Shown here in pieces: positions 3,121 to 55,501 of a stretch of DNA of 55,501 nucleotides. Origin of the DNA: Candidatus Yanofskybacteria bacterium RIFCSPHIGHO2_02_FULL_43_17. Its GTDB lineage: Bacteria > Patescibacteriota > Minisyncoccia > 2-02-FULL-40-12 > GWA2-44-9. Each line of letters starts with the position of its first letter. Within the stretch, counting starts at the first letter, position 1. The position numbers and the translations under genes are program-made. Below the pieces are notes generated by a model. It saw only the letters and a list, made by a program, of their open reading frames with translations. It made no database searches and was not told the origin of the DNA. The stretch spans positions 157,196-212,696 of the forward strand of contig MGJU01000013.1 of NCBI GenBank assembly GCA_001794435.1, read 5' to 3'.

Positions 3121-3200
3121 TAACATTGTTACATTGTTCAGCCGCTACGCGGCTCATTACTATATTGCTAACAATCCAACAACTTAACAATATAACAGTT
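3121..3200. repeat. 8-nt-period ATTGTTNN / NNAACAAT inverted array element with central GC hairpin
   Basis: attgttac attgttca, then gccgc-tac-gcggc hairpin (3141-3153), then reverse-oriented aacaat/caacaa/taacaat units; same unit family as 17931-18045 and 47347-47380. Confidence 0.6.
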
Positions 3201-10921: not shown

Positions 10922-12497
10922 AGATGAAAAATGATTGCCCTATCTTATCAACCGGTTTATACAACGCCAGCCAATTCAAACCAGGATCTTTTCTTTGGTT
11001 GCTTAATAGTTGCATACGGATTAACAAGAAAGTATTAACGGCATACCTGCCTTTCGGCTCCCGCCACCAGCCGGAATCATCGGCCATCATAAAATTCTTC
11101 ACTCCATAGTATTCGGGGCTTGAATTTTTCCACGAATAAACAACTTTAGTATCCGGATTTTCCGCTTGATATTTCCCCAGCCGCTTCAAATCCTGCCCCC
11201 ACTCAACATTGGAATCATCCAAATATTTATACCCGTTTTCCGGCCCCCCGACAAGTTCATTAAAATAGGACATGTGGTCAGGATAAGCGCGGACCGCCGA
11301 AGATATTTGCCAAAGGCCTAAAATCATAATCGCAATCATTCCCGCCCTTATGCTTGTTTTATAATTTCGATATTTCGATATTTCGATATTTCGAAATGTT
11401 TCAGTTATCCCGCCGGCATAAAGAATTAAAAACGGATAAATCGGCAAAATATATCTGATGCTGATATCGTGGGCCTTTATGCTTGTGACAAAAGTAAAGG
11501 AGATCACCGGCAGAAACACGAACACCTTGCCCCAACCGTCCATCTTTATTTTTTTATAAAATAAAATTGAGGTCACAAACACGATAAGGGCGGGGATTGG
11601 TGTTTTTATTACAAACGCTTCCAAAAAGTAGTACCACCAACCGTCAGGCGAGAAATTGCCATTCAGATAAAAATTATAGCCGGGCTTCCAGTCGGCGTAA
11701 ATTGTTCTTAATCCTTTTATATAAAATCCGAGATCAGAAGGCATTAAATAAATGAAATAAAGAATGATAAAAGCCGGGACAATGGCAATCAAAGAAAAGT
11801 TGGCCAACCGACGTATCTTTGTATTGATCTCCCCTCCGCACCGCCATGCGTAAACAAGGATAAACAAAGAGATCACGGGCAGAAACACGATAGCAGAAAA
11901 TTTTGAACCTAGCGTCAAGCCGAGAAAAATACCAGAAAAAACCAGTTGTTTCTTATCGTTGAGCTTGATGAAGCGCCATAAATAGTAAAATGTTATAAAT
12001 GAAAAAGCAGCAAGAGCTAGATCGGTTGTAACAAACTGGGCATTAGCGATAATGACGGGCATAAAGGCATACAGAAATAAGGATAAAAATCCCGCCTTGC
12101 GACTAAATATTTCTGAAGCCCATTTATAAACATAAAAACCAAGCAAAACAGAGATAAGCATCACCGACAGCCGACCCCACAACAGCAACTTGTCCATATT
12201 GTTGGAAGATAGGAAATTTTGGCCAAAGGCCCACTCGTTTCTGATCGGTCCGATTAAATTGGGGTCTTTATCGTTAAATTTAAAATCCATAAAAAGTAAA
12301 GGAAAAGAGGCCAACAATTTTACTAGCGGAGGATGTTGGGGGTTTAGAACAACCTGGCCTGTTTTCCAGTAAGAATATCCGCTTGGAAGATGGGTTATTT
12401 CATCAGTTGCCGGACTGAAATTCTGCGCGCTGAAAAACGGTAGCAGAAAAACGACACTCAATAAAACGATAACGACCGCCTTGTAATACTTAAACAT
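10911..12497 (-). CDS. GT39/GT83 family (PMT/ArnT-like) lipid-carrier-dependent glycosyltransferase
   Basis: 528-aa polytopic ORF; N-terminal loop DEITHLPSGYSYW...NPQHPPLVKLL typical of PMT_2/ArnT enzymes; 11-nt overlap with downstream gene. Confidence 0.7.
   Translation of the reverse strand: MFKYYKAVVIVLLSVVFLLPFFSAQNFSPATDEITHLPSGYSYWKTGQVVLNPQHPPLVKLLASFPLLFMDFKFNDKDPNLIGPIRNEWAFGQNFLSSNNMDKLLLWGRLSVMLISVLLGFYVYKWASEIFSRKAGFLSLFLYAFMPVIIANAQFVTTDLALAAFSFITFYYLWRFIKLNDKKQLVFSGIFLGLTLGSKFSAIVFLPVISLFILVYAWRCGGEINTKIRRLANFSLIAIVPAFIILYFIYLMPSDLGFYIKGLRTIYADWKPGYNFYLNGNFSPDGWWYYFLEAFVIKTPIPALIVFVTSILFYKKIKMDGWGKVFVFLPVISFTFVTSIKAHDISIRYILPIYPFLILYAGGITETFRNIEISKYRNYKTSIRAGMIAIMILGLWQISSAVRAYPDHMSYFNELVGGPENGYKYLDDSNVEWGQDLKRLGKYQAENPDTKVVYSWKNSSPEYYGVKNFMMADDSGWWREPKGRYAVNTFLLIRMQLLSNQRKDPGLNWLALYKPVDKIGQSFFIYEF
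11363..11396. repeat. Octamer tandem array (ATTTCGAT)x4 ending in palindrome atttcgaaat, inside CDS
   Basis: atttcgat atttcgat atttcgat atttcgaa at; translated FRNIEISKYRNYK within the GT39 gene. Confidence 0.85.
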
Positions 12498-17146: not shown

Positions 17147-19066
17147 CTATTTGATAGTTAGTTGTCGAATAAGTTCCGCTATCAACTTCCCCGTCTCCGG
17201 GTCAACGCTGGAATACTTCAGTCCTTCGTTAAGATCAATGAGCGCTTTCTCTTTGTTGTTAAGGGCGACATAAACAAGCGCGGAATTGTAGTAGACGCGA
17301 GGATTACCGGGGAGAAGTAGTTTTAATTTTTCTATATTTATTACCGTTTGAATAAAATCCCCCCGCTGTGCATAGATAACCGCCAAGTTTTGGTACGGGT
17401 AAAAAAAGCCGGGGTCAATCTCTATGGCCTTATTGAACTCTGCAATCGCGCCCTCAATGTCGCCCCTCGACTGCAATATGCTCCCGATATTAAAATGCGG
17501 CTGGGCAAAATCGTTCCCCGACCCGACGGCTTTTCTGTAATAAAACTCGGCCCGATCCATATCTCCTTGATTAAAATATCGGTTGCCAAGATTATTATTT
17601 ATCTTGATGCTGTCCGGCTCGTATTTGAGAATGTCTTTATAAAATTCGACGGGATTGCCCCATAAGACATTTCGCTGGACAGATTGATAACCAAAGAAAA
17701 GCAGGTAAGCTAGCAAGCCCGTAAGCAATAAGCCACGAAAAATTAGGTTTTTGGATTTTAAGAAATCAAACAGTTTAATCAAATAAAAAGAAGCTATGAG
17801 CCAAAAGCCGACCATCGGCAGATAAAGCCAGTGTTCGTATATTAAGGCGTTGATTGGCGTAATCCCGGAGACCATCGCCAGACCGATGAAAAACCAACCC
17901 GTTCCGAATAGCCAAATTCGGAATGGGAAAATTGTTACATTGTTAAATTGTCGAATTGTTGCACCTTCAGATTGTTGAATTGTTACATTGTTAAACCTCT
18001 CCTTCTTATACATAACAATTAAACAATATAGCAATATAGCAATGATTGTAGCACCAAGCCAGACCGGCCACTGGAACAGCGATGTATGCACCACCATACT
18101 TCGTTCCATATGAAGACCTGTGGGCACGAACAGTAAGCGGAAGTAATCAATCAGAACGTGCATAAAGGTAAAGAGGCGATAAATTATATTTTCCGAATAT
18201 GGGTTGGCTTTACTGTAGAAATTCAGAGTATTTTGAAAATTCAAAACCGTTAAGCGTAATATTCCGTAAACAGCAACAACCCCGAAATAAGGCAATGCTT
18301 CTTTAAACGCGTTCTTGACATCGAACACCTTAACGCCTGATGTCCCGCGGCCATCCAATGCCCGCCCGTCCTCTGGCGCGGTCGTTAATTTATTCTTATC
18401 GGAAAACGCGATATAAAACACCATCAAGAGAAAAGGAAATATAACTCCCGTTTCCCGGCTCAAAATCGCCAAAACAAAAGCCGCCAAAGACAAGGTTTTA
18501 AGCCACCGAAACCCTGTGGATAATCGACTTCGCAAGTCGATTATCCACAGGTAGAGGGCGAGGAGAATAAAGAACACCGACAACGGATCGCCACGGCCGG
18601 AGATATATGCAACAGCTTCGGTGTTGAGAGGATGAATAGCAAAAAAAAGCGCGGTTAAGAAGGCCACAATCTGGCCGGCATATCTTCGCAATAAAACAAA
18701 TACCAGCACTGCGTTGGCAATATGTATTGAGTTGCTTACTAAATGCCAAAGGAACGGTTTCGTTTCGGATACAACCCAATTAAGAGCAAAAGTGAAAAAG
18801 AGGAACGGTCTGTAATAGTTGCTCTGAAGTCCGATTCCAGCTAACGCATTGTTGGAAAACCAAAACTTTATACTTTCCCAATTTATTGAGTGGACGTAAA
18901 CATTGTTGATTATCCAATCATCGTCATCCCAAAAAAGCTCGTTGTTCAAGTTAAAAGAATAGACAAAACCGCCTATTACCACCAGGAATATAATCGGCAA
19001 CCATGCTTCTTTTTTATTCAGCAAGTTCATATTTATACTTTGAAAAAACCGGCCTATTCTTATCAT
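17147..19066 (-). CDS. TMTC-like polytopic membrane protein with C-terminal TPR repeats (paralog of 15210-17072)
   Basis: 639-aa ORF (alternative ATG at 19030); LFWDDDDWIINN motif, multiple TM helices, TPR repeats; contains three different mini-elements in frame. Confidence 0.6.
   Translation of the reverse strand: MIRIGRFFQSINMNLLNKKEAWLPIIFLVVIGGFVYSFNLNNELFWDDDDWIINNVYVHSINWESIKFWFSNNALAGIGLQSNYYRPFLFFTFALNWVVSETKPFLWHLVSNSIHIANAVLVFVLLRRYAGQIVAFLTALFFAIHPLNTEAVAYISGRGDPLSVFFILLALYLWIIDLRSRLSTGFRWLKTLSLAAFVLAILSRETGVIFPFLLMVFYIAFSDKNKLTTAPEDGRALDGRGTSGVKVFDVKNAFKEALPYFGVVAVYGILRLTVLNFQNTLNFYSKANPYSENIIYRLFTFMHVLIDYFRLLFVPTGLHMERSMVVHTSLFQWPVWLGATIIAILLYCLIVMYKKERFNNVTIQQSEGATIRQFNNVTIFPFRIWLFGTGWFFIGLAMVSGITPINALIYEHWLYLPMVGFWLIASFYLIKLFDFLKSKNLIFRGLLLTGLLAYLLFFGYQSVQRNVLWGNPVEFYKDILKYEPDSIKINNNLGNRYFNQGDMDRAEFYYRKAVGSGNDFAQPHFNIGSILQSRGDIEGAIAEFNKAIEIDPGFFYPYQNLAVIYAQRGDFIQTVINIEKLKLLLPGNPRVYYNSALVYVALNNKEKALIDLNEGLKYSSVDPETGKLIAELIRQLTIK
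17931..18045. repeat. 8-nt-period inverted array (ATTGTTNN)n ... (AACAATNN/AGCAATNN)n inside CDS
   Basis: eight 8-nt units at 17931-17994, seven starting ATTGT (17-nt direct duplication attgttacattgttaaa); reverse-oriented units aacaatta aacaatat agcaatat agcaatga at 18014-18045. Confidence 0.75.
18314..18388. repeat. T-hairpin element copy T2 (long, composite form), inside CDS
   Basis: cttgacatcg...ttaacgcctgatgtcccgcggccatccaatg-cccgcccgtcctctggcgcg-gtcgttaa; shares about 55 nt with T4 in opposite orientation; read as LTTAPEDGRALDGRGTSGVKVFDVK. Confidence 0.7.
18514..18550. repeat. REP palindrome copy 2, inside CDS
   Basis: Identical 37-mer; read in frame as LWIIDLRSRLSTG. Confidence 0.95.
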
Positions 19067-20624
19067 TGTTTTTAACCAAGATTATAGCATTTTCGTTAAT
19101 AAACACCACTTTCCAGTCAGAATTCCTAATTATACTTTTTAAGAACGCTTGCCCCCACGGCGTCGCGTCAGTGTGGCCGAAAAATATGAAGTTAATACCA
19201 TATTTGTTGGAAAACTCCTCCCACTTCTCTCTGTTTTCCTGCATCGGCTTGTATATCTCGCTGAAAAATTCTACTGAATATGCCTCCGGGCGGTTATCAA
19301 CGAATACTTTTTCCTCCGGCAATTTCCATATCAGATAGCCGCCAATGTCAAAATTATTGAACATAGGCCCCTCTATATTATTCTTCTTAACAAAACTAGC
19401 CGCACGTTCCAGTCCGTCTGGAACTGAAAAACCGAAAGTTTTTGATAATCTCGCCCATTTATAATAACCTCCGCTCGCCACAAAAAAAATCATAAAAACC
19501 AGAAAAACGACCAGCAACATCTTGGCCGCCCACTGAAGCCTGGCTTCTGCCTGCCTCCAGAAGCCTGGCTTCTGGAAAGCTGAAAACACATCGGTTAGCA
19601 AGATTACCATCACCGGAAAAGATGCCAGCGCGTATAAGGGCAAATTGCGAAGCATCCTGAATCCGGCATAAATAAAGAAGGTGGAAATTAAAATTTCGAA
19701 AATCCTTTCTTTTGTCTTCTTGACGGTCAGCAAAAAAGAAACAACCAGAACCGCCGTTGAGATCTTAAAAATAAAAATCGACAAATTAAAACCGAATAAA
19801 TCAGCCAAAAAAGCAAGCGTTTGGTTTTCAACAATGCTGTAACCATATTCTTTCAGGATATTAAAAGGCAGTAGCGCTCCCTGAATTCCGGCGGGATTTA
19901 TAAGAGTAGCCAATCCGATCAATCCGCCGACCAGTAACAATTTTTGTATTACGTATTTCGTATTTCGTATTATGGGATCAAATAAGCGGTCAATAAAAAA
20001 GGCCAAAAACAAGATTGGGCCGATGAAGAAATAGATGTGGAGGTTAACCCACAACAACTGCGCCAACGGCAAAAACCATAACCAAGACGGAGTTTTAACA
20101 TCGGGAGTCCCGCGGACTTCCGATGTTGTTAATTCGTATTTCGCCTTAAACAACGCGGATAAGAAAAACGCTAGTATCAAAAAACTGAAAATCTCCGGCC
20201 TCACCTCCGTCCGGGAAATAAATATAAATATTGAGAGAACGAAAGAAACAATTATTGGCCAAAAACCTACTCTAACCCCTGTGGATAATCGACTTCGCAA
20301 GTCGATTATCCACAGGGGTTTAATGGTTAAAAGCAAGAGTATAAACGTCGCCAGAACTACAAAAATCTTAAGCAAGATAAGGCCGGTGAATCCGCCCAAA
20401 TTATAGACGCCGTAAAATATTACTTCGCTTAGCCAATGATGATTTGTAAACGGAAAGTCCGGCTCGGTGAAAGAGAATAGGTTGGTTGTCGGAACACTTT
20501 TTGTCTCCCAAATTATCTCCCCTGTCTTCAAATGCCGCCCGATATCCTGGCCGATAGAATCAAAATTGTGAACCAGAAAAACGGCCAGAAGACCGAAAAG
20601 AAGAATAAAAGTCAGGAGTTTCAT
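19014..20624 (-). CDS. Polytopic membrane protein, possibly GT-C-type glycosyltransferase (function uncertain)
   Basis: 536-aa ORF with more than 10 TM helices and a soluble C-terminal domain; contains four different mini-elements in frame; overlaps the start of 17147-19066. Confidence 0.5.
   Translation of the reverse strand: MKLLTFILLFGLLAVFLVHNFDSIGQDIGRHLKTGEIIWETKSVPTTNLFSFTEPDFPFTNHHWLSEVIFYGVYNLGGFTGLILLKIFVVLATFILLLLTIKPLWIIDLRSRLSTGVRVGFWPIIVSFVLSIFIFISRTEVRPEIFSFLILAFFLSALFKAKYELTTSEVRGTPDVKTPSWLWFLPLAQLLWVNLHIYFFIGPILFLAFFIDRLFDPIIRNTKYVIQKLLLVGGLIGLATLINPAGIQGALLPFNILKEYGYSIVENQTLAFLADLFGFNLSIFIFKISTAVLVVSFLLTVKKTKERIFEILISTFFIYAGFRMLRNLPLYALASFPVMVILLTDVFSAFQKPGFWRQAEARLQWAAKMLLVVFLVFMIFFVASGGYYKWARLSKTFGFSVPDGLERAASFVKKNNIEGPMFNNFDIGGYLIWKLPEEKVFVDNRPEAYSVEFFSEIYKPMQENREKWEEFSNKYGINFIFFGHTDATPWGQAFLKSIIRNSDWKVVFINENAIILVKNNDKNRPVFSKYKYELAE
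19534..19575. repeat. 17-nt direct repeat of a palindromic unit (gaagcctggcttc) inside CDS
   Basis: ctgaagcctggcttctg at 19533-19549 and cagaagcctggcttctg at 19558-19574 (16/17 identical); translated QKPGFWRQAEARLQW. Confidence 0.7.
19944..19971. repeat. Heptamer array (NCGTATT)x4, inside CDS
   Basis: ttgtatt acgtatt tcgtatt tcgtatt; translated IRNTKYVIQ. Confidence 0.75.
20095..20132. repeat. T-hairpin element copy T3 (short form), inside CDS
   Basis: ttaacatcgggagtcc-cgc-ggacttccgatgttgttaa; read as LTTSEVRGTPDVK. Confidence 0.8.
20279..20315. repeat. REP palindrome copy 3, inside CDS
   Basis: Identical 37-mer; arms extend to 20 bp (cccctgtgg...ccacagggg, 20276-20318); read as LWIIDLRSRLSTG. 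Confidence 0.95.
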
Positions 20625-30222: not shown

Positions 30223-30259
30223 CTGTGGATAATCGACTTCGCAAGTCGATTATCCACAG
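30223..30259. repeat. REP palindrome copy 4, intergenic
   Basis: Identical 37-mer, loop cgc; 39-nt with flanking c/g. Confidence 0.95.
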
Positions 30260-30499: not shown

Positions 30500-30536
30500 C
30501 TGTGGATAATCGACTTGCGAAGTCGATTATCCACAG
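30500..30536. repeat. REP palindrome copy 5, immediately 5' of the RAYT gene
   Basis: Identical arms, loop gcg (opposite orientation to copy 4); ends 13 nt before the ATG at 30550. Confidence 0.95.
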
Positions 30537-30549
30537 GTATACTGCTGGA

Positions 30550-31215
30550 ATGGAAAATGTTTATCACACATTAAATCGTGGAGTAGAGAAACGAGAAATC
30601 TTTATGGATAAACAAGATTATCTTAGATTTATCCACAATCTTTATGAGTTCAATGACGAGGATAGGATTGAGAATTCTATCAAGATTTTTCTAACTGATC
30701 CTAAGCTAGCCGATACTACTACTAGAAAGAGAAGAAAAACCCTCGTTGATATTCTTGCTTTTTGTTTGATGCCCAACCATTATCACCTGATGCTTTCACC
30801 GCAAGTCAAAAACGGAATTCCCAAGTTTATGGCTAAAGTTAATATCGGTTACGCCAAATATTTCAACCAAAAATACGAAAGAGTTGGCGCATTGTTTCAG
30901 GGAAGATACAAACAAGTACCAATCACTGACAATACTCATTTTCTCCATTTGCCGTTCTATATTCACTTTAACCCCCTCGACTTAAAATTTCCGGAATGGA
31001 GAGAAAACAAAATAGCAAGTCCGCAAAAGACGCTCGAGTTTCTCGAGTCCTACAAATGGAGTAGCCACTTAGAATATCTCGGCGTAAAAAATTATGGCTC
31101 GGTTTTAAATAAAAAAGTTTTAAACGAAGTTTTCGATGGAAGCGCCGGTTATAAAAAACTTGTTGAGACATATCTAAAAGACATCCAGGTAGATAGCGAA
31201 GTTTCTCTTGAATAA
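30550..31215 (+). CDS. REP-associated tyrosine transposase (RAYT; IS200/IS605-like HUH Y1 transposase family)
   Basis: 221 aa from the ATG at 30550; HUH motif in LMPNHYHLML, catalytic Tyr context FQGRYKQVPI, N-terminal YHTLNRGVEKREIF; flanked on both sides by REP copies. Confidence 0.8.
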   Translation: MENVYHTLNRGVEKREIFMDKQDYLRFIHNLYEFNDEDRIENSIKIFLTDPKLADTTTRKRRKTLVDILAFCLMPNHYHLMLSPQVKNGIPKFMAKVNIGYAKYFNQKYERVGALFQGRYKQVPITDNTHFLHLPFYIHFNPLDLKFPEWRENKIASPQKTLEFLESYKWSSHLEYLGVKNYGSVLNKKVLNEVFDGSAGYKKLVETYLKDIQVDSEVSLE

Positions 31216-31216
31216 T

Positions 31217-31253
31217 CTGTGGATAATCGACTTGCGAAGTCGATTATCCACAG
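31217..31253. repeat. REP palindrome copy 6, immediately 3' of the RAYT gene
   Basis: Identical arms, loop gcg; starts 2 nt after the RAYT stop; lies between convergent genes so may also terminate both. Confidence 0.95.
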
Positions 31254-48815: not shown

Positions 48816-48875
48816 ATTACGTATTACGTATTACGTATTTATTCGTAAATAATCCGTAATTTGTAATTCGTAATA
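48816..48875. repeat. Heptamer inverted array hairpin (ATTACGT x3 ... CGTAATN units)
   Basis: attacgt attacgt attacgt att / cgtaaat, cgtaatt, tgtaatt, cgtaata; starts 7 nt upstream of the start of 48309-48809. Confidence 0.8.
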
Positions 48876-48993: not shown

Positions 48994-49017
48994 ATTACGA
49001 ATTACGGATTACGTATT
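48994..49017. repeat. Heptamer array, left boundary of the four-helix-bundle cassette
   Basis: attacga attacgg attacgt att; contains the stop codon of 49009-49386. Confidence 0.8.
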
Positions 49018-49386
49018 GTTTTTTCGGTATTTATCAAGATAAACAATAAACCCTCCGATTCTAGCACCCAATTCCTCAAGTTTTTCATTAACAAAATTAA
49101 ATTCTTCGATAGAAATGTAGCCAACAGCCAGTGCTATATGCAACTGATTCCGAGTTTCGCCAACCGAACCTTTAGACATTCTAAGAAATCTTATGAATTC
49201 GTTATTGTTACTCTTTTCAAAACCTTCCACGATGTTAGAACTAACAGAAACTACCGCCCTTCTTATTTGATCCCGCAGACCAAAATCTTTACTCCACTTT
49301 GAGTTAGAAGTTAAGTCGTATATAAATTTAGTAATTTTTAGAGCTAATTTCCAAATTGGTAACTCTTCAAATTTTTTGTATTTCAT
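49009..49386 (-). CDS. Four-helix-bundle protein (23S rRNA intervening-sequence protein family)
   Basis: 125-aa ORF; IWKLALKITKFIY, RDQIRRAVVSVSSNIVEGFE, FIRFLRMSKGSVGETRNQLHIA typical of this family. Confidence 0.85.
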   Translation of the reverse strand: MKYKKFEELPIWKLALKITKFIYDLTSNSKWSKDFGLRDQIRRAVVSVSSNIVEGFEKSNNNEFIRFLRMSKGSVGETRNQLHIALAVGYISIEEFNFVNEKLEELGARIGGFIVYLDKYRKNNT

Positions 49387-49410
49387 AATCCGTAATGCGT
49401 AATTCGTAAT
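49387..49410. repeat. Heptamer array, right boundary of the four-helix-bundle cassette (inverted relative to 48994-49017)
   Basis: aat ccgtaat gcgtaat tcgtaat; begins 1 nt after the start codon. Confidence 0.8.
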
Positions 49411-49419
49411 ATAATAATT

Positions 49420-51276
49420 CTATCTTTTTAACATTTTGAGAAAAACCTCCTGCGGCAAGTTCACCCTTCCCGCCTCTTTCATTTTCTTTTTCCCTTTTTT
49501 CTGCTTTTCCAGAAGTTTCATTTTTCTGGTTACGTCGCCGCCATATAGATAGCCGGTCACATCTTTGCGCTTTGCTTTGATGGATTCACGAGCAATTATC
49601 TTGCCTCCTATCGCCGCTTGTATCGCCACCTCGAACCATTGAGGCGGAATGACCTCTTTAAGTTTCGCCGCCATTGTCCTTCCTTCGTAGTACGCCTTAT
49701 CCTTGGGGACTATCCTTGAAAATGGTTCGACGAGCTCACCGGCAATCAAAATATCCAACCGCACCAAGTCATTGACCGCCATTCCCTTCAACTCATAGCT
49801 CATCGAAGCATAGCCAGACGATACGCTTTTCAATTTATCATAAAAATCGGTTATGACTTCCGATAAAGGCATCTCATATCTCAGAAACGCGGTCTCTTTG
49901 CCAAAATAATCAGTCGCCTGGTATGTATTCCTGAATGAAGATATGAGCTCCATAACGCTACCCAAATAAGAACTTGGGGTTATTATTTCGATATCGACCA
50001 CTGGTTCGGCTATGCTTTCGATTTTAGACGGATCGGGAAGTGAAGATGCCGACTTTATTCTTACTTCTTCTCTGTCAGCAAGTTTGATCAAATATTCAAC
50101 CGAGGGTGTTGAGATTATCAGAGGCAAATCGAACTCACGCTTTAGCCGTTCCGAGATTATCTCAACGTGTAGCATACCGAGAAAACCAAGCCGGAATCCC
50201 CTGCCCAAGCCGACAGAAGATTCGGGCTCATAGATCAGAGAGGCATCCGTCAGTTTGAGTTTCCCCAAAGCATCCTTGAGTAAATCGTAATCTTCAGCGT
50301 TTTCGGGAAAAAAGCTGGCAAAGACCATCGGCTTGGGTTCCTTGTATCCTGATAAGGGCTTGAATTGCGTATTGCGTATTGCGTATTGCGTATTATTTTT
50401 AATGCGTAATTCGTAATCCGTAATGCTTAATTGAGACGTAATAGTATCGCCGACACGGATAAGTCCGGGGTCCTTGAGTCCGGTGGCTATGTAGCCGATA
50501 TTTCCGGCAGACAGTTCAGAATTTAACGTAAGTTTGGGAGCAAAGAACCCGACCTCAAGAACATCAAATTTTGCTTTCGTTGCCCAAGACGCAACCTTAT
50601 CTCCTCTTTTGAAAGCACCGTCGAACATCCTGACATAAGCAATAATACCTTTATAAGCGTCGAAGGTTGAATCAAATATAAGCGCTCCCGATTCAACCGT
50701 ATCTAATTCTTGGTACTTAATATTTGCGCTTGGCGAAGGTACTTTTTCTATCACCGCTTGAAGCAATTTTTCCACATTTGCCCCGGTCTTGCCGGACACC
50801 TCCAATATCTCATCCTGTTCTATTTCCAAAAGATACGACAGTTCCTCCTTAACTTGTGCGGTTCTGGCGTTTGGCAAATCAATTTTATTCACCGCCGGTA
50901 TTATTTTCAGTCCTTGTGTCTTGGCAAGATGAAGATTGGCAAGCGTCTGGGCCTGTATACCCTTGGAAGCGTCGACGAGAAGTATCGCCCCCTCAACCGC
51001 AGCTAGAGACCGTGACACTTCGTATGAGAAATCAACGTGTCCGGGGGTATCAATCAGATTTAAGACATAGGCCTTAGAACCTAAAACATAGTTCATCCTC
51101 ACCGGCTGCAGTTTAATGGTAATACCTCTTTCTCTCTCCAACTCCATTTGATCCAGATACTGCTCTTGCATCTTTCTTTTCTCAACCGTCCCGGTCAATT
51201 CTAAAAATCGGTCCGCTAATGTGGACTTGCCGTGATCAATATGCGCAATTATACAAAAATTTCGTACGTTATTCAT
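49420..51276 (-). CDS. lepA: Translation elongation factor 4 (LepA)
   Basis: NFCIIAHIDHGKSTLADR, DTPGHVDF, NKID G-motifs and a conserved C-terminal LepA domain; ATG at 51276 preferred over GTG at 51294; in-frame heptamer-array insert at 50364-50424. Confidence 0.95.
   Translation of the reverse strand: MNNVRNFCIIAHIDHGKSTLADRFLELTGTVEKRKMQEQYLDQMELERERGITIKLQPVRMNYVLGSKAYVLNLIDTPGHVDFSYEVSRSLAAVEGAILLVDASKGIQAQTLANLHLAKTQGLKIIPAVNKIDLPNARTAQVKEELSYLLEIEQDEILEVSGKTGANVEKLLQAVIEKVPSPSANIKYQELDTVESGALIFDSTFDAYKGIIAYVRMFDGAFKRGDKVASWATKAKFDVLEVGFFAPKLTLNSELSAGNIGYIATGLKDPGLIRVGDTITSQLSITDYELRIKNNTQYAIRNTQFKPLSGYKEPKPMVFASFFPENAEDYDLLKDALGKLKLTDASLIYEPESSVGLGRGFRLGFLGMLHVEIISERLKREFDLPLIISTPSVEYLIKLADREEVRIKSASSLPDPSKIESIAEPVVDIEIITPSSYLGSVMELISSFRNTYQATDYFGKETAFLRYEMPLSEVITDFYDKLKSVSSGYASMSYELKGMAVNDLVRLDILIAGELVEPFSRIVPKDKAYYEGRTMAAKLKEVIPPQWFEVAIQAAIGGKIIARESIKAKRKDVTGYLYGGDVTRKMKLLEKQKKGKKKMKEAGRVNLPQEVFLKMLKR
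50364..50424. repeat. Heptamer inverted array inside lepA
   Basis: (attgcgt)x4 att - atttttaat region - gcgtaat tcgtaat ccgtaat; translated ITDYELRIKNNTQYAIRNTQ. Confidence 0.85.
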
Positions 51277-51314
51277 AAGATAAAGAGGTCCCACGAGGAG
51301 CGGGACCTGACTAC

Positions 51315-51587: not shown

Positions 51588-54143
51588 TTATTCCAGCTTA
51601 AATTTCAACTCCAGGTCTTTGTTAAATTCCCCATAATATAGGAGGGAGTCGCCTACTTGGAACTCGAAATTGTCAACCTCAAGACCCGGCTGTTTTTGTA
51701 CATAAATATTATTGCTTTGCACGGATACGACATATTCCAGCTCAACCGTCTTTTGCTTTCCAGGGTCAGTGATAAGCCAAAAAGCAAAACCTGTTTTGCC
51801 TGATTCGCTATAGGTGCTAACTCCGTTTTCATTGTCAATCCCGTTAGAGGTCCGACCCGCCTGGAAGGCGTGGTCGGCAGACGACCCCGACTCAAGTCGG
51901 GGCGTCTTACCTCTAACGGGATGAAAGCCGGATTCCAGTTTTAATAAATCGCCGTCCTGCTTAAAGTCGCTGCCGGAATAATTTATGAGTGGTTTGTACC
52001 CCGGATCTGAATTGCCGGAGATGCTGACCAATTCCGAACCTTCTGGAACAAGCACGCGGACATAAGCCGGATTTTGCTTGTTATAAAATCCGTATCTTGT
52101 CGAACCGCCGTTGTGCTGGCGCGTAAGCTCAATCTTGTGTACCATCCTGCCTTCCTCAAACCGAACCGACACTTTAATGGAGTTATCGGTCACTATGTCG
52201 GTCTTTGAACCCTTTACGTTTGTAAATGTAATCATCAAGTAGTCCTCGTCAGTATTCTTGATAAGTCCGCCGAATCCCTTATCGGCCACGAATTGTTCTA
52301 AGTTCAGGTCTTTGAAGTACATCAACACGTCTTTTTTGTCCAACCCCGATATGAATACACTAAATATGTCCAGCCACTTACCAGGGTCCGATGAGTTTAT
52401 TCTTTCTAAAAGTTTAGGCGCCATATCTAAAACGACTTTCTTGGGTTGTTCCCGGTTGTCTCCGTATTCCACTTCCGCCTGAATGGTAGACAAGAAGTTC
52501 TCATCATTTATCGAAAAGCCGTACTCCGGCATTTCTATCGGCCCGACCACTTTCAATATGTCTGATATCATTCTCGGGCTCATTGTTATAACACCGTCAA
52601 TATCGTAGCCGGCTTCTTTATTAAAAAATTCCATGGTTTTCTGCGCAGAGACAGAAAAATCAATAAACCAATTGGCGTCTCTCATCCCCCAATTCGGAGT
52701 TATGTGCTGCAGAGGTTTGGGCGGGATGATATTTTCTTTAAGCTGTCCGTCCAGATTATAAACGTCGTCAACCAAAAAGCCGGCAAGACGCCCGTCCTTG
52801 AAGGTTACAACGGCATAAGTTCCGGGAAACCCGCCAGTCGGCCTCAATTCGCTGTTGTTTTGGAACAGGATTAGATATTTCTTTGTACCGTTTGAGCCGA
52901 GTAAGTTCTCCAAAAAACTGGTGTATTCCACGGCATCGGAGACAATGCTTCTAAATTCGGGGAGTTTGGATTGAAATTCCAAGAATGATTCCCTTTTATC
53001 CTCCGGCAAGGCTTCAGCGTTTACATCGGATAGAAGAGCGCTGGCTTTTGATAAGTTCTTGCTTGATGAGGCAAATGATTTTTTGAGGTCGCTGAAAATG
53101 TTCTGATGTCGAACATCATTATCTGTGACAACGTCCGACATCATTAAAATTAAACTCGTTTTCGACAACGCCGTAACCGCCTCCGACATTGACTTTCCCG
53201 CTTCAGCAAGCAGTTTTCCCGCCTCAACAAGGTTTTTTGCCGATTTCAATTTACCGGCGCCCGGCAGTTCGGCAAACAAAGAAGTAATGCTGGCCCCCAT
53301 AAAGTTCAGGCTTTCACCTGCTTTTGAAAATTCTCCATACGCTTCGGCGAAATCGTTTGATGCCGCTTCAAAATCAAACACTCTCAAGCTCTCGTTGGCT
53401 TGTTCGAGATTAGCCACCGCCAAATTGCTTTCTCTCAATACTTCGTTTTTTACGCTTATTCCGTACTGACCAAACGAAGTAAATATCAGAGCAGAAAAAC
53501 CAACGACGCCAAAGGTCAAAAAATTATTCCGTCTGAACAAATAATTTTTTGACCGGATTAAAAATTCTGGATTAAAAATTCCCGTAATTCGTAACTCATA
53601 ATTTTTGTTCCAACCTTGCCGAGAATTCTCGGTAGCTTTGTTGTCGGAATTTCTCGCGTACTTCGCCCAGCTTTCTATTTCCGATGACGCCGCTCCTGGT
53701 ATTTTTTCCGTCATCATCCCCAAAGAAATGGGATCTATCTTTCTCGGCTCCCCGATTATTCCCTCGCCGTGAACCGGCGCAACCCGTTGATTTATTTGAG
53801 AAAGTATCGCTTGGTAGGGATCGGCAACTTCCGATTTTTGCTTCGCAAAAATCGGGCGGTATCTCGGCCTTCCGGCCTTTTTCTTCATAACCGTTTCCCC
53901 GCCGATACTTTTTATTTCTTTTGCCACATCGAGGGTCTGGCTTAAAACCGCCTCGAATTCTTCTCGCGGAGAGAAGAATTTTTCATCCGCCCGACTCGAT
54001 AGTTCAGAAGGTTTGGTTTTAACTGAAGCAAGATTTACCACTGGCGCCACCTTCGCAATTTTCCGTACATCAACCAAGCCCGAATCATCTACGGGTTTAA
54101 TATCGAATAGCGCTTTCAGAATATTCGGTTTTTTATCAGACAC
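51588..54143 (-). CDS. DUF4012 domain protein
   Basis: 851-aa ORF; central TM; FQNNSELRPTGGFPGTYAVVTFKDG motif characteristic of DUF4012; heptamer units at 53582-53602 in frame (NYELRIT). Confidence 0.7.
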   Translation of the reverse strand: MSDKKPNILKALFDIKPVDDSGLVDVRKIAKVAPVVNLASVKTKPSELSSRADEKFFSPREEFEAVLSQTLDVAKEIKSIGGETVMKKKAGRPRYRPIFAKQKSEVADPYQAILSQINQRVAPVHGEGIIGEPRKIDPISLGMMTEKIPGAASSEIESWAKYARNSDNKATENSRQGWNKNYELRITGIFNPEFLIRSKNYLFRRNNFLTFGVVGFSALIFTSFGQYGISVKNEVLRESNLAVANLEQANESLRVFDFEAASNDFAEAYGEFSKAGESLNFMGASITSLFAELPGAGKLKSAKNLVEAGKLLAEAGKSMSEAVTALSKTSLILMMSDVVTDNDVRHQNIFSDLKKSFASSSKNLSKASALLSDVNAEALPEDKRESFLEFQSKLPEFRSIVSDAVEYTSFLENLLGSNGTKKYLILFQNNSELRPTGGFPGTYAVVTFKDGRLAGFLVDDVYNLDGQLKENIIPPKPLQHITPNWGMRDANWFIDFSVSAQKTMEFFNKEAGYDIDGVITMSPRMISDILKVVGPIEMPEYGFSINDENFLSTIQAEVEYGDNREQPKKVVLDMAPKLLERINSSDPGKWLDIFSVFISGLDKKDVLMYFKDLNLEQFVADKGFGGLIKNTDEDYLMITFTNVKGSKTDIVTDNSIKVSVRFEEGRMVHKIELTRQHNGGSTRYGFYNKQNPAYVRVLVPEGSELVSISGNSDPGYKPLINYSGSDFKQDGDLLKLESGFHPVRGKTPRLESGSSADHAFQAGRTSNGIDNENGVSTYSESGKTGFAFWLITDPGKQKTVELEYVVSVQSNNIYVQKQPGLEVDNFEFQVGDSLLYYGEFNKDLELKFKLE
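53582..53602. repeat. Solo heptamer units inside DUF4012 gene
   Basis: ccgtaat tcgtaac tcataat. Confidence 0.6.
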
Positions 54144-54144
54144 G

Positions 54145-55501
54145 TTATTTGGATTTGACTCCGCCTTTTATTTTGACTCCGCCTTTTATTTTTATGAGAG
54201 GGGTGGCTGCGGCTGCTCCCCCGCCTCGGTCCGTAATTGCTCTAATTTTCCAAAAATCATTTCTTGTGTCGTAGTCACCGGCAGCAGTACCGCGGCCAGC
54301 GATTCCGCCGTCAATATCGTCTGCGTCATCGTGCCGAGTGGTAGTAGCAGCCGTGTCATCAGCTGGTTCCCAATCAGGCGTTTCGTCAACTCCGATCCAG
54401 CCGGGATCAGATGGTTTGGTGGCGCCGTGGTCTAAAACCCACACATCAAAAGTAACCGCGCTCCCGGCCGTTCCGGTGCAAGCTAAACGAACAGTATGGA
54501 AATCTCCGACAGTATACGTGCCAATAACGTTATTTGCCAAAGTAGTGCGCGTGCCGGTATTCCACCGAGTCAAATTGTGATCAGCGCCACCCCCCCCATC
54601 ATCCTGAATAAAAACGGCGTAAACATCATCCGCGCCGGCATTATTGGCCCGGCAAGCCGCTGTCGGCAAGCGAATACTGGAACCGAGAATACCGGTAACC
54701 TGAACTTCCTGCTCGATACTGCCCGGGTCGGCAGAATCATATCTGACAAACATACTATCAGCAGCATCTGTTACAAAGTCCAATTCTCCATTTGCAGAAT
54801 CCCAGGCCACTTCCCCAAGCTCTACAACCCATGTTCCGGGAAAACCGGGATCGCTGGTAAAGTCGTCGAGATATTCCGTATTATGCGTTTCGGCAACCAA
54901 CTTTTCCGGGGGGCGATAAGCATTATGATTAAGATATGCGTAAATATCCTGAACTATTTTCCTTAAAGTGGTGTTATTATCATAACTGGCTATGTCTGCG
55001 CTAAAGCCTGATTTGTTTTGAATCTGACCGCCATAGTCGGTAAAACTATAAGCTCCTAGAAAAGTTCCCAGGGTATTTTGTAAAGTTGTTTTTTGCGAAA
55101 CTGTCAAATCTCCCAGTCGGGTGTCTAAAATTTTTCCTGGAAATAGAATCGTATTGGCATCGGGAGCGCCGATATTGCCTCTTAAACGAACAAGGGCATA
55201 AGGAACAGAGTACAAACCGGCAACAGAATCAAATGGCGGATAAGAAGCGTCTGTGCTTTCCGCCAATCTTGGGGTTTGAACCATTGCCGCAACCGTAAAA
55301 CCGCCGTCACTTTCCCGTACTATTCTTGATAATCCATATTGGCCGTCTAGTACGGTTACCGGGGCTGAAGATTCATCGGAGCCAAGACTGATGTAGCTTT
55401 GGTTGGTCTGATTGTTATTTTCCGTCGTAATCCAATCGGCTGATTTGATAACATCCGAAAAACGAACCTTATTAACCTCGGCGGGATTCTGATTGGTGGG
55501 T
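54145..55501 (-). CDS. Hypothetical protein, 5'-partial (runs off the window end)
   Basis: The reading frame stays open upstream of the listed Met at 55284 all the way to position 55501 (hand translation ...PTNQNPAEVNKVRFSDVIKSADWITTENNNQ...); stop lies 1 nt from the DUF4012 start; C-terminal IKGGVK x2 from an 18-nt tandem repeat at 54155-54190. Confidence 0.55.
   Translation of the reverse strand, partial: PTNQNPAEVNKVRFSDVIKSADWITTENNNQTNQSYISLGSDESSAPVTVLDGQYGLSRIVRESDGGFTVAAMVQTPRLAESTDASYPPFDSVAGLYSVPYALVRLRGNIGAPDANTILFPGKILDTRLGDLTVSQKTTLQNTLGTFLGAYSFTDYGGQIQNKSGFSADIASYDNNTTLRKIVQDIYAYLNHNAYRPPEKLVAETHNTEYLDDFTSDPGFPGTWVVELGEVAWDSANGELDFVTDAADSMFVRYDSADPGSIEQEVQVTGILGSSIRLPTAACRANNAGADDVYAVFIQDDGGGGADHNLTRWNTGTRTTLANNVIGTYTVGDFHTVRLACTGTAGSAVTFDVWVLDHGATKPSDPGWIGVDETPDWEPADDTAATTTRHDDADDIDGGIAGRGTAAGDYDTRNDFWKIRAITDRGGGAAAATPLIKIKGGVKIKGGVKSK

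Follow-up and report, generated by a model that had tools for sequence, protein, structure and literature searches.

An inverted heptamer array in the reading frame of lepA in a Candidatus Yanofskybacteria genome and its likeness to hairpin cassettes

The window analysed here is a stretch of 55,501 nt from Candidatus Yanofskybacteria bacterium RIFCSPHIGHO2_02_FULL_43_17 (GenBank assembly GCA_001794435.1, contig MGJU01000013.1, positions 157,196 to 212,696 of the forward strand). On its minus strand lies lepA, the gene of the GTPase LepA (EF4), and the codons that link domains II and III of the protein contain 68 bases of inverted heptamer repeats (50364-50431). This lepA element is probably a gene-less ('solo-arm') copy of a hairpin cassette of the intervening sequence (IVS) type, tolerated and translated inside the protein. 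The two arms of such a cassette are inverted tandem arrays of the heptamer ATTACGN, and its full-length form carries a small four-helix-bundle gene (PF05635/TIGR02436) between them. A copy would have entered the linker codons in an ancestor, being now common to relatives with up to about 24% LepA divergence, and the ribosome would read through it, so that domains II and III would be joined through an extra, probably flexible loop of 18 residues. The element would be selfish DNA, kept because the linker tolerates it, and the loop is presumably neutral.

The lepA element and the cassette family

The host gene and the parts of the element were located as follows (minus strand):
49420..51294 (-), lepA (EF4), the host gene: an open reading frame (ORF) of 624 aa with GTP_EFTU, D2, EFG_III, EFG_C and LepA_C intact and in order
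50364..50391 (-), arm 2: (ACGCAAT)x4 in the mRNA, read as NTQYAIRNTQ; the canonical NCGTAAT with T-to-C in all units
50392..50403 (-), A/T loop: ATTAAAAATAAT in the mRNA (I K N N)
50404..50431 (-), arm 1: (ATTAAGC) ATTACGG ATTACGA ATTACGC in the mRNA, read as (LS)ITDYELR; stop-free in all frames
50436..50442 (-), native ATTACGT: codons of the conserved GDTIT motif (ACT ATT ACG T)

On the plus strand, (ATTGCGT)x4 (50364-50391; Tandem Repeats Finder: 4.4 copies, 100% identity, score 62) was followed by the 12-nt A/T loop ATTATTTTTAAT (50392-50403), GCGTAAT TCGTAAT CCGTAAT (50404-50424), and a fourth, degenerate unit, GCTTAAT. The array reported in a preliminary description of this DNA is thus real and extends 7 nt beyond the end claimed there (50431, not 50424). 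On the mRNA strand, arm 1, the loop, and arm 2 are read as the peptide ITDYELRIKNNTQYAIRNTQ (aa 291-310), and the ORF stays open. By Pfam, domain II ends at aa 286 and domain III begins at aa 320; the position claimed earlier, in frame in the domain II-III connector, was confirmed. A weak CAATT(C)AAGC direct repeat, possibly a target-site duplication, was seen in the mRNA-strand flanks (50355-50363 and 50432-50445; CAATTAAGC before the element, CAATTCAAGC at its end), its CAAT belonging to the last unit; other copies have no such repeat.

The host protein matched Thermus thermophilus EF4 with an E-value of 1.9e-184, and its best LepA matches were named Candidatus Yanofskybacteria or Paceibacterota, members of the Candidate Phyla Radiation (CPR). 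The linker from GDTIT to (L/Y)PGF/Y was 27 aa long; both T. thermophilus EF4 and the shortest relative (P0030) have a linker of 9 aa. The difference of 18 aa agrees with the approximately 18 extra residues claimed at first. In an AlphaFold2 model made from a 49-sequence alignment (mediocre, mean predicted local distance difference test [pLDDT] 66.9), residues 293-309 had pLDDT below 50, which is consistent with a flexible excursion and is no proof of one. LepA/EF4 is highly conserved yet dispensable in Escherichia coli under standard conditions. The earlier word 'essential' was therefore too strong, and the tolerance of an insert is less surprising than that word implies. An assembly artefact was ruled out: the same LepA with an identical insert was found on 11 contigs from independent ENA, JGI, and NCBI assemblies. 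The core of the preliminary description, that a DNA element with a 7-nt period is tolerated in the LepA connector, was borne out.

The element is not alone in the window. The half-site CGTAATNCGTAAT, with at most one mismatch, had 14 matches against 0.34 expected, and 0 of 100 shuffles reached 14. The matches were spread over five or six loci in the 55 kb, as expected of a short palindromic repeat in several copies. The design (ATTACGN)n-loop-(NCGTAAT)n was found at four further loci, one of which flanks a PF05635 gene:
48994..49410 (-), full-length cassette: ATTACGA ATTACGC ATTACGG ATT, ATG, 125-aa four-helix-bundle ORF (49009..49386), ACG TAA, TCCGTAAT TCGTAAT
48816..48874 (no strand assigned), gene-less intergenic copy: (ATTACGT)x3 ATT-TATTCGTAAATAAT-CCGTAAT TTGTAAT TCGTAAT; folds on both strands
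53555..53600 (-), degenerate in-frame copy within the DUF4012 gene: reads NYELRITGIFNPEFLIRS (NYELRITG...); absent from the L001 orthologue
19942..19971 (-), solo array: ACGAAAT ACGAAAT ACGTAAT in frame in ORF 19014..20624 (IRNTKYVI); in-frame TAA changed to AAA

The 125-aa ORF of the full-length cassette matched PF05635 ('23S rRNA intervening sequence protein', E 6e-32) and TIGR02436 ('four helix bundle protein'). Its left array abuts the ATG directly, and the ORF ends with AAT ACG TAA, the stop codon being the TAA of the first unit of the right arm (ACGTAAT CCGTAAT TCGTAAT). In this cassette and in the intergenic copy the terminal inverted repeats pair into a stem. The cassette lies 1 kb from the lepA element, and three of the four copies other than the cassette are within 4.6 kb of it (p ~0.016 by our own binomial estimate). 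The last 9 nt of the lepA loop matched 8/9 positions of AAAAACAAT, a stretch found before the right arm where the four-helix-bundle ORF has its 3' end; loop and arms together were about 83% identical, compared by eye, to the cassette with its ORF removed. These matches suggest that the lepA copy derives from a gene-carrying form by loss of the ORF. The element of the preliminary description is hence real but not unique, as it belongs to a family with a gene-carrying, full-length form close by.

The same architecture recurred outside the window. A metagenome scan for related four-helix-bundle genes gave 80 loci (L149-L228), of which 62 were non-redundant and had enough flanking sequence. Among these 62 cassettes the following features were counted:
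7- or 8-nt array at most 50 nt upstream of the ATG: 57/62
Array downstream of the stop codon: 48/62
Flanks pairing more than 5 kcal/mol better than shuffles: 55/62 (mean -26.0 vs -10.9)
Stop codon TAA: 61/62

The closest homologue of the four-helix-bundle protein (95% identity) is encoded at the same place after lepA in a relative and has the same arms. A copy in a Spirochaetia metagenome-assembled genome lies between two permease genes, also with ATTACGN arms, and in another lineage the octamer ATTAACGN is used. Relatives also have free-standing GxxExxY (TIGR04256/PF13366) genes, which are framed in the same manner by CGCTGA-type arrays. As a separate observation, the arrays abut the four-helix-bundle ATG both in the window (49384-49410) and in the 62 metagenome cassettes, leaving no room for a Shine-Dalgarno sequence; speculatively, a cassette mRNA with almost no leader might be set free when the flanking stem is cleaved.

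Stop codons and strand-asymmetric folding

Read forwards, ATTACGN has no stop codon in any frame (I-T-x-Y-x-L-R). Since 7 and 3 are coprime, three units of the right arm (NCGTAAT) suffice to put a TAA in each reading frame, and survival of a copy in an ORF requires that its in-frame TAAs be changed. The right arm at a second LepA position (site B, below) of the related loci L003 and L128, CCGAAAT ACGTAAT ACGCAAT, had its in-frame TAAs changed to GAA and CAA and its out-of-frame TAA kept. The site-C element of L003 and the window array at 19942 had likewise lost the in-frame TAA and kept the out-of-frame one. In the window lepA and in L127, every unit of the right arm carried T-to-C (TAA to CAA). 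In the window lepA the change was present in 4/4 units and needed in two. Its presence in all units, together with their 100% identity, suggests that one purged unit was probably re-amplified by slippage into the four identical units seen now.

The T-to-C purging explains both the odd ATTGCGT unit and the folding of the antisense strand only. As RNA, the plus (antisense) strand of the element folded with -32.2 kcal/mol (z -4.56) and the mRNA strand with -5.8 kcal/mol (z +1.07), as T-to-C leaves the mRNA with A-C mismatches and the antisense strand with G-U pairs. The G-U pairing proposed earlier for the plus strand and the A-C mismatches proposed for the mRNA strand were confirmed. The terminal stem of the lepA copy formed on the antisense strand only, and the antisense strand folded better than the sense strand in 11/11 in-frame elements of LepA relatives. 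In this account, the change would have abolished the hairpin of the mRNA and left the G-U pairs on the other strand.

An antisense RNA or a DNA hairpin of the plus strand, kept to regulate lepA or replication, could also be read from the stable antisense fold, the unfolded sense strand, and the recurrence of this asymmetry in all 11 elements. We consider such a function improbable. Removal of stops by T-to-C yields G-U pairs on the antisense and A-C mismatches on the sense strand automatically, and purging to GAA or AAA, as found elsewhere, breaks pairing on both strands. Folding with DNA parameters was weak on both strands, a search of the plus strand found no promoter or terminator consensus match adjoining the element, and the sequence of the element is replaced even among near relatives. 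The removal of stops accounts for the strand asymmetry, which is not evidence for an antisense RNA.

Removal of the insert from the RNA before translation, by an IVS- or intron-like excision that would leave LepA to be made without it, has a precedent in the related cassettes of 23S rRNA, which RNase III excises (PMC4990558). For lepA it is barely credible: religation is not among the activities of RNase III, no hairpin exists on the mRNA strand, and constraints of frame and stop codons, needless for an excised segment, are obeyed in every copy examined.

Insertion sites and turnover in LepA relatives

The best 120 LepA homologues were compared, and 49 sequences were aligned. The length of the 120 proteins ranged from 566 to 786 aa (median 605). 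The alignment contained at least four insertion hot spots, which hold different repeat families and mark four loops of LepA as tolerating large inserts:
Site A: after QPVRMxY
Site B: after VPPP
Site C: the domain II-III linker, the site of the window element
Site D: after PSVEYxVKLK

Several relatives had the ATTACGN element at site C with identical junctions, and the site was occupied as follows:
L003 (LepA 9% diverged): ATTACGN element intact
L127 (LepA 24% diverged): ATTACGN element intact, right arm (CCGCAAT)x3
L126: ATTACGN element decayed
L125: reduced to (ATTATCN)x3
Closest relative (6-7% diverged): octamer array AANATTTN x4
P0010 and P0015: array read FRNIEIS.YRNF, the translated octamer (TCGAAATA)n, an octamer that the window has in another gene (11364-11394)
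L128: inverted heptamers AAACTCT/AGAGTTT
L005: ACGGAC(N4-5)/GTCCGT
P0030: no insert

L001 also had other periodic units instead of ATTACGN in its LepA insert. The alignment of related CPR LepAs thus separated carriers of the ATTACGN element (L003, L126, L127) from carriers of other units (L001, L005, L128) and from a protein with none (P0030). The extra residues of the relatives came from periodic DNA; a homologous insert made of non-periodic DNA, which would have spoken against the preliminary description, was not found. The ATTACGN element was present also at site B in L003 and L128, and the peptide signature of ATTACGN was found in 13 of the 120 homologues.

Local microsatellite growth, that is, slippage and template switching in place, with the native ATTACG in the GDTIT codons as the seed and no mobile element involved, was considered as an explanation of the lepA array. 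Between the native ATTACGT and the array there are 4 nt to the degenerate outermost unit and 11 nt to the first canonical one, the four ACGCAAT units are 100% identical, suggesting recent slippage, and the number of heptamers differs among Coxiella strains (PMC4990558). Yet more than 60 cassettes, and other gene-less copies too, show the same inverted arrangement with an A-rich loop; site C of relatives is occupied by unrelated units (AAACTCT, ACGGAC-N4-5, octamers) without such a seed; and site B, which lacks the seed, has the ATTACGN element as well. Growth in place is therefore unlikely as the origin of the element. It is partly compatible with the insertion of a gene-less cassette copy, as slippage probably reshaped the arm afterwards, and the native ATTACGT could have seeded that slippage or served as a patch of homology.

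A phase-variable switch would turn lepA on and off by gain or loss of one 7-nt unit. The unit length is not a multiple of three, there are four perfect copies, and one contig of a relative (L129) has a stop codon inside another lepA element. Against this, there was no length variation over the 11 contigs, the heterogeneous arms of relatives suppress slippage, and four copies make a short tract; such a switch is very improbable. In L129 (~680-690), compared with L130-L133, a cluster of four substitutions in the site-B hairpin of lepA creates an in-frame TAA and splits the gene into two ORFs. Copy-number polymorphism was rejected here, as these five contigs of one relative differ by the substitution cluster only and not in the number of units.

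At site A of four homologues (P0014, P0018, P0021, and P0022), a complete GxxExxY domain was found in frame with LepA (E 2.4e-35, full-length match). The GxxExxY and D...ExK motifs were retained in 4/4 of these domains, which are flanked by translated arrays. As judged from these reading frames, full cassettes, and not just gene-less arms, can be read through in LepA, and the nuclease inside LepA could drive homing. In L005 (4001-6361, LepA P0014), and likewise in P0018, P0021, and P0022, the GxxExxY (TIGR04256/PF13366) PD-(D/E)XK nuclease domain is fused into the G-domain hairpin and flanked by ACGGAC(N4-5)/GTCCGT arrays, gene-less copies of which occupy sites B and C of the same gene.

Two side observations concern neighbouring sequences. 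At site B of the window LepA (50690-50731, aa 189-202), the segment SANIKYQELDTVES exceeds its T. thermophilus EF4 counterpart by 6 residues and resembles the site-B peptides N(A/S)(G/I)IKY(K/Q)ELSI of P0011 and P0015; the extra residues may be the decayed remnant of another array. The DUF4012 genes of L001, L005, and L128 differ from that of the window (51588-54143) in many array-derived inserts (LTTSDVRGTSDV, TRTVTDTKQTITDKSP...), so that the invasion extends over the proteome and LepA is no special case. The lepA case is one of many genes colonised by selfish DNA in these genomes.

Several points weigh against a translated, gene-less cassette copy. The absence of in-frame TAA in an open ORF is in part a circular argument. 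T-to-C is found in four units and needed in two, so homogenisation or selection against an mRNA hairpin may act. The likeness of the loop to the 3' end of the cassette ORF comprises 9 low-complexity bases only, the LepA model is of mediocre quality, and the translation of the insert is presumed. No transposase, clear target-site duplication, or pair of empty and filled alleles within one population was found, so that mobility is inferred from distribution alone. Candidates for the mover are homing driven by a nuclease, recombination between arrays at short range, and single-strand transposition that depends on hairpins; slippage clearly reshapes the arms after insertion.

Distribution, known systems, and other repeats

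In species-representative genomes, three consecutive ATTACGN units were found at more than 119 loci, most of them solo direct intergenic arrays. The hosts included Cyanobacteria (many Nostoc), Bacteroidota, Chloroflexota, Acidobacteriota, Planctomycetota, and Firmicutes. Fourteen of 133 arrays lay within ORFs, every one in the stop-free orientation. ATTACGA arrays were read in frame as ITNYELRI in UvrC (Ignavibacteriales), DNA polymerase III delta' (Nitrospirae), PheT (Acidobacteria), and a SIS-CBS enzyme (Paludibacteraceae). A gene-less inverted copy in an ORF of Acidobacteria had its right arm purged to (CCGCAAT)x3. The in-frame arrays of other phyla, this inverted copy included, were located at:
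L009, 4081-4108
L022, 962-982
L036, 2326-2353
L056, 2437-2457
L020, 1568-1633

By single-sequence phmmer, a four-helix-bundle or GxxExxY gene was found beside the ATTACGN arrays of other phyla at 2/119 loci. The array is thus not always tied to a detectable cassette.

In-frame palindromic DNA, IVSs with S23p genes, and heptamer repeats have been known separately. Rickettsia palindromic elements (RPEs; Ogata et al. 2000, 2002) are short palindromes inserted in frame in unrelated housekeeping genes and translated (PMC10969869). RPEs occupy positions compatible with the protein fold, add a peptide, and have no known transposase, and by analogy the lepA element matches them in behaviour. RPEs are palindromes of unique sequence of about 100-150 bp, found only in Rickettsia, whereas the elements described here have arms of tandem 7-8-nt arrays, several coexisting unit families, a gene-carrying form, and a unit shared across phyla.

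The 23S IVS of Coxiella has three tandem heptamers and a fourth, degenerate unit leading up to the ATG of S23p, in strain-variable number, and its terminal stem is cut by RNase III (PMC4990558). ORFs of PF05635 have been described in insertions of CPR 16S and 23S rRNA genes (PMC11270868). Neither paper mentions insertion in protein genes, and the latter does not mention repeats. The S23p IVSs of Coxiella and Leptospira share with the neighbouring cassette the gene family, terminal inverted repeats, and heptamers abutting the ATG, and gene-less forms occur beside gene-carrying ones, as in the family here. They reside in rRNA helices and are excised by RNase III, whereas the lepA copy lies in a protein-coding frame, has no hairpin on the mRNA strand, and must be translated. 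An rRNA IVS in the strict sense was rejected for the lepA copy, which is not in rRNA, has a 12-nt loop with no ORF, and forms no stem on the mRNA strand. At the gathering threshold, Rfam found only three tRNAs in the window and no known RNA family at the element.

Intergenic direct repeats of heptamers in cyanobacteria and Beggiatoaceae, for which a regulatory role was proposed, likewise consist of 7-nt tandem units with a variable last base and lie mostly in intergenic regions, directly upstream of start codons; they were not described as gene-enclosing inverted pairs or in-frame inserts (PMC4679880). Our literature search returned nothing joining CPR with heptamer repeats and nothing containing ATTACGAATTACG or NYELRI. 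The unification of these systems, the tandem-array arms, the re-occupation of the same loops by multiple families, and the in-frame nuclease appear to be new.

A wider proposal is put forward tentatively. Inverted-array cassettes with a TIGR02436 or TIGR04256 (GxxExxY PD-(D/E)XK nuclease) gene would form one unrecognised class of mobile element, with rRNA IVSs as its rRNA-resident members. The cassettes and their gene-less derivatives would invade protein genes of CPR bacteria, and sporadically of other phyla, in frame, re-occupying permissive loops and even leaving an intact nuclease domain in LepA. If this is true, the cassettes are a major source of lineage-specific protein insertions in the reduced CPR genomes. 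The present findings link rRNA IVSs with S23p/four-helix-bundle genes, intergenic heptamer repeats, and in-frame palindromes of the Rickettsia type as forms of one architecture. They give the many lineage-specific insertions in conserved CPR proteins, which complicate annotation, phylogeny, and structure prediction, a concrete source. The widespread, uncharacterised TIGR02436 and TIGR04256 gain a testable handle, as their flanking arrays could be binding or cleavage sites.

Repetitive extragenic palindromic (REP) sequences and REPINs are, like the elements here, short dispersed hairpin repeats, and the window has its own gene resembling a REP-associated tyrosine transposase (RAYT). This RAYT-like Y1 transposase gene (30502-31215, +; Y1_Tnp by Pfam in the L003 homologue, phmmer E 1.7e-29) has 38-nt REP hairpins, CTGTGGATAATCGACTTGCGAAGTCGATTATCCACAG, on its flanks, and three more copies lie in frame in ORFs, as LWIIDLRSRLSTG or AVDNRLAKSIIHR. 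The REP hairpins were located at 30224-30258, 30501-30535, 31218-31252, 547-581, 18515-18549, and 20280-20314. The heptamer arrays bear no relation to the REP sequence (CTGTGGATAATCGACTT...), and nothing ties the RAYT to these arrays; the RAYT was rejected as mobiliser of the arrays, being flanked by its own, unrelated hairpins.

Further arrays were seen in the window. A second inverted tandem-array family, of the octamer NNATTGTT/AACAATNN, has one intergenic and one in-frame copy (3123-3197 and 17929-18043), the latter in a TPR protein ORF (17147..19066; IIAILLYCLIV...FNNVTIQQ). A perfect octamer direct array, (ATTTCGAT)x3.9, lies at 11364-11394 in frame in a PMT_2 glycosyltransferase ORF (FRNIEISKYRNY), and its peptide is nearly the same as that at LepA site C of P0010 and P0015. 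Heptamer arrays of the AAATACN type were in frame in two adjacent GT4 glycosyltransferase genes (1201-1232 and 2282-2323; ILNTKYKIQDTK and LIRNTEYKILY). Immediately upstream of the DUF4012 start, at 54154-54192, there is a perfect 18-nt direct repeat, TTTGACTCCGCCTTTTAT x2.2.

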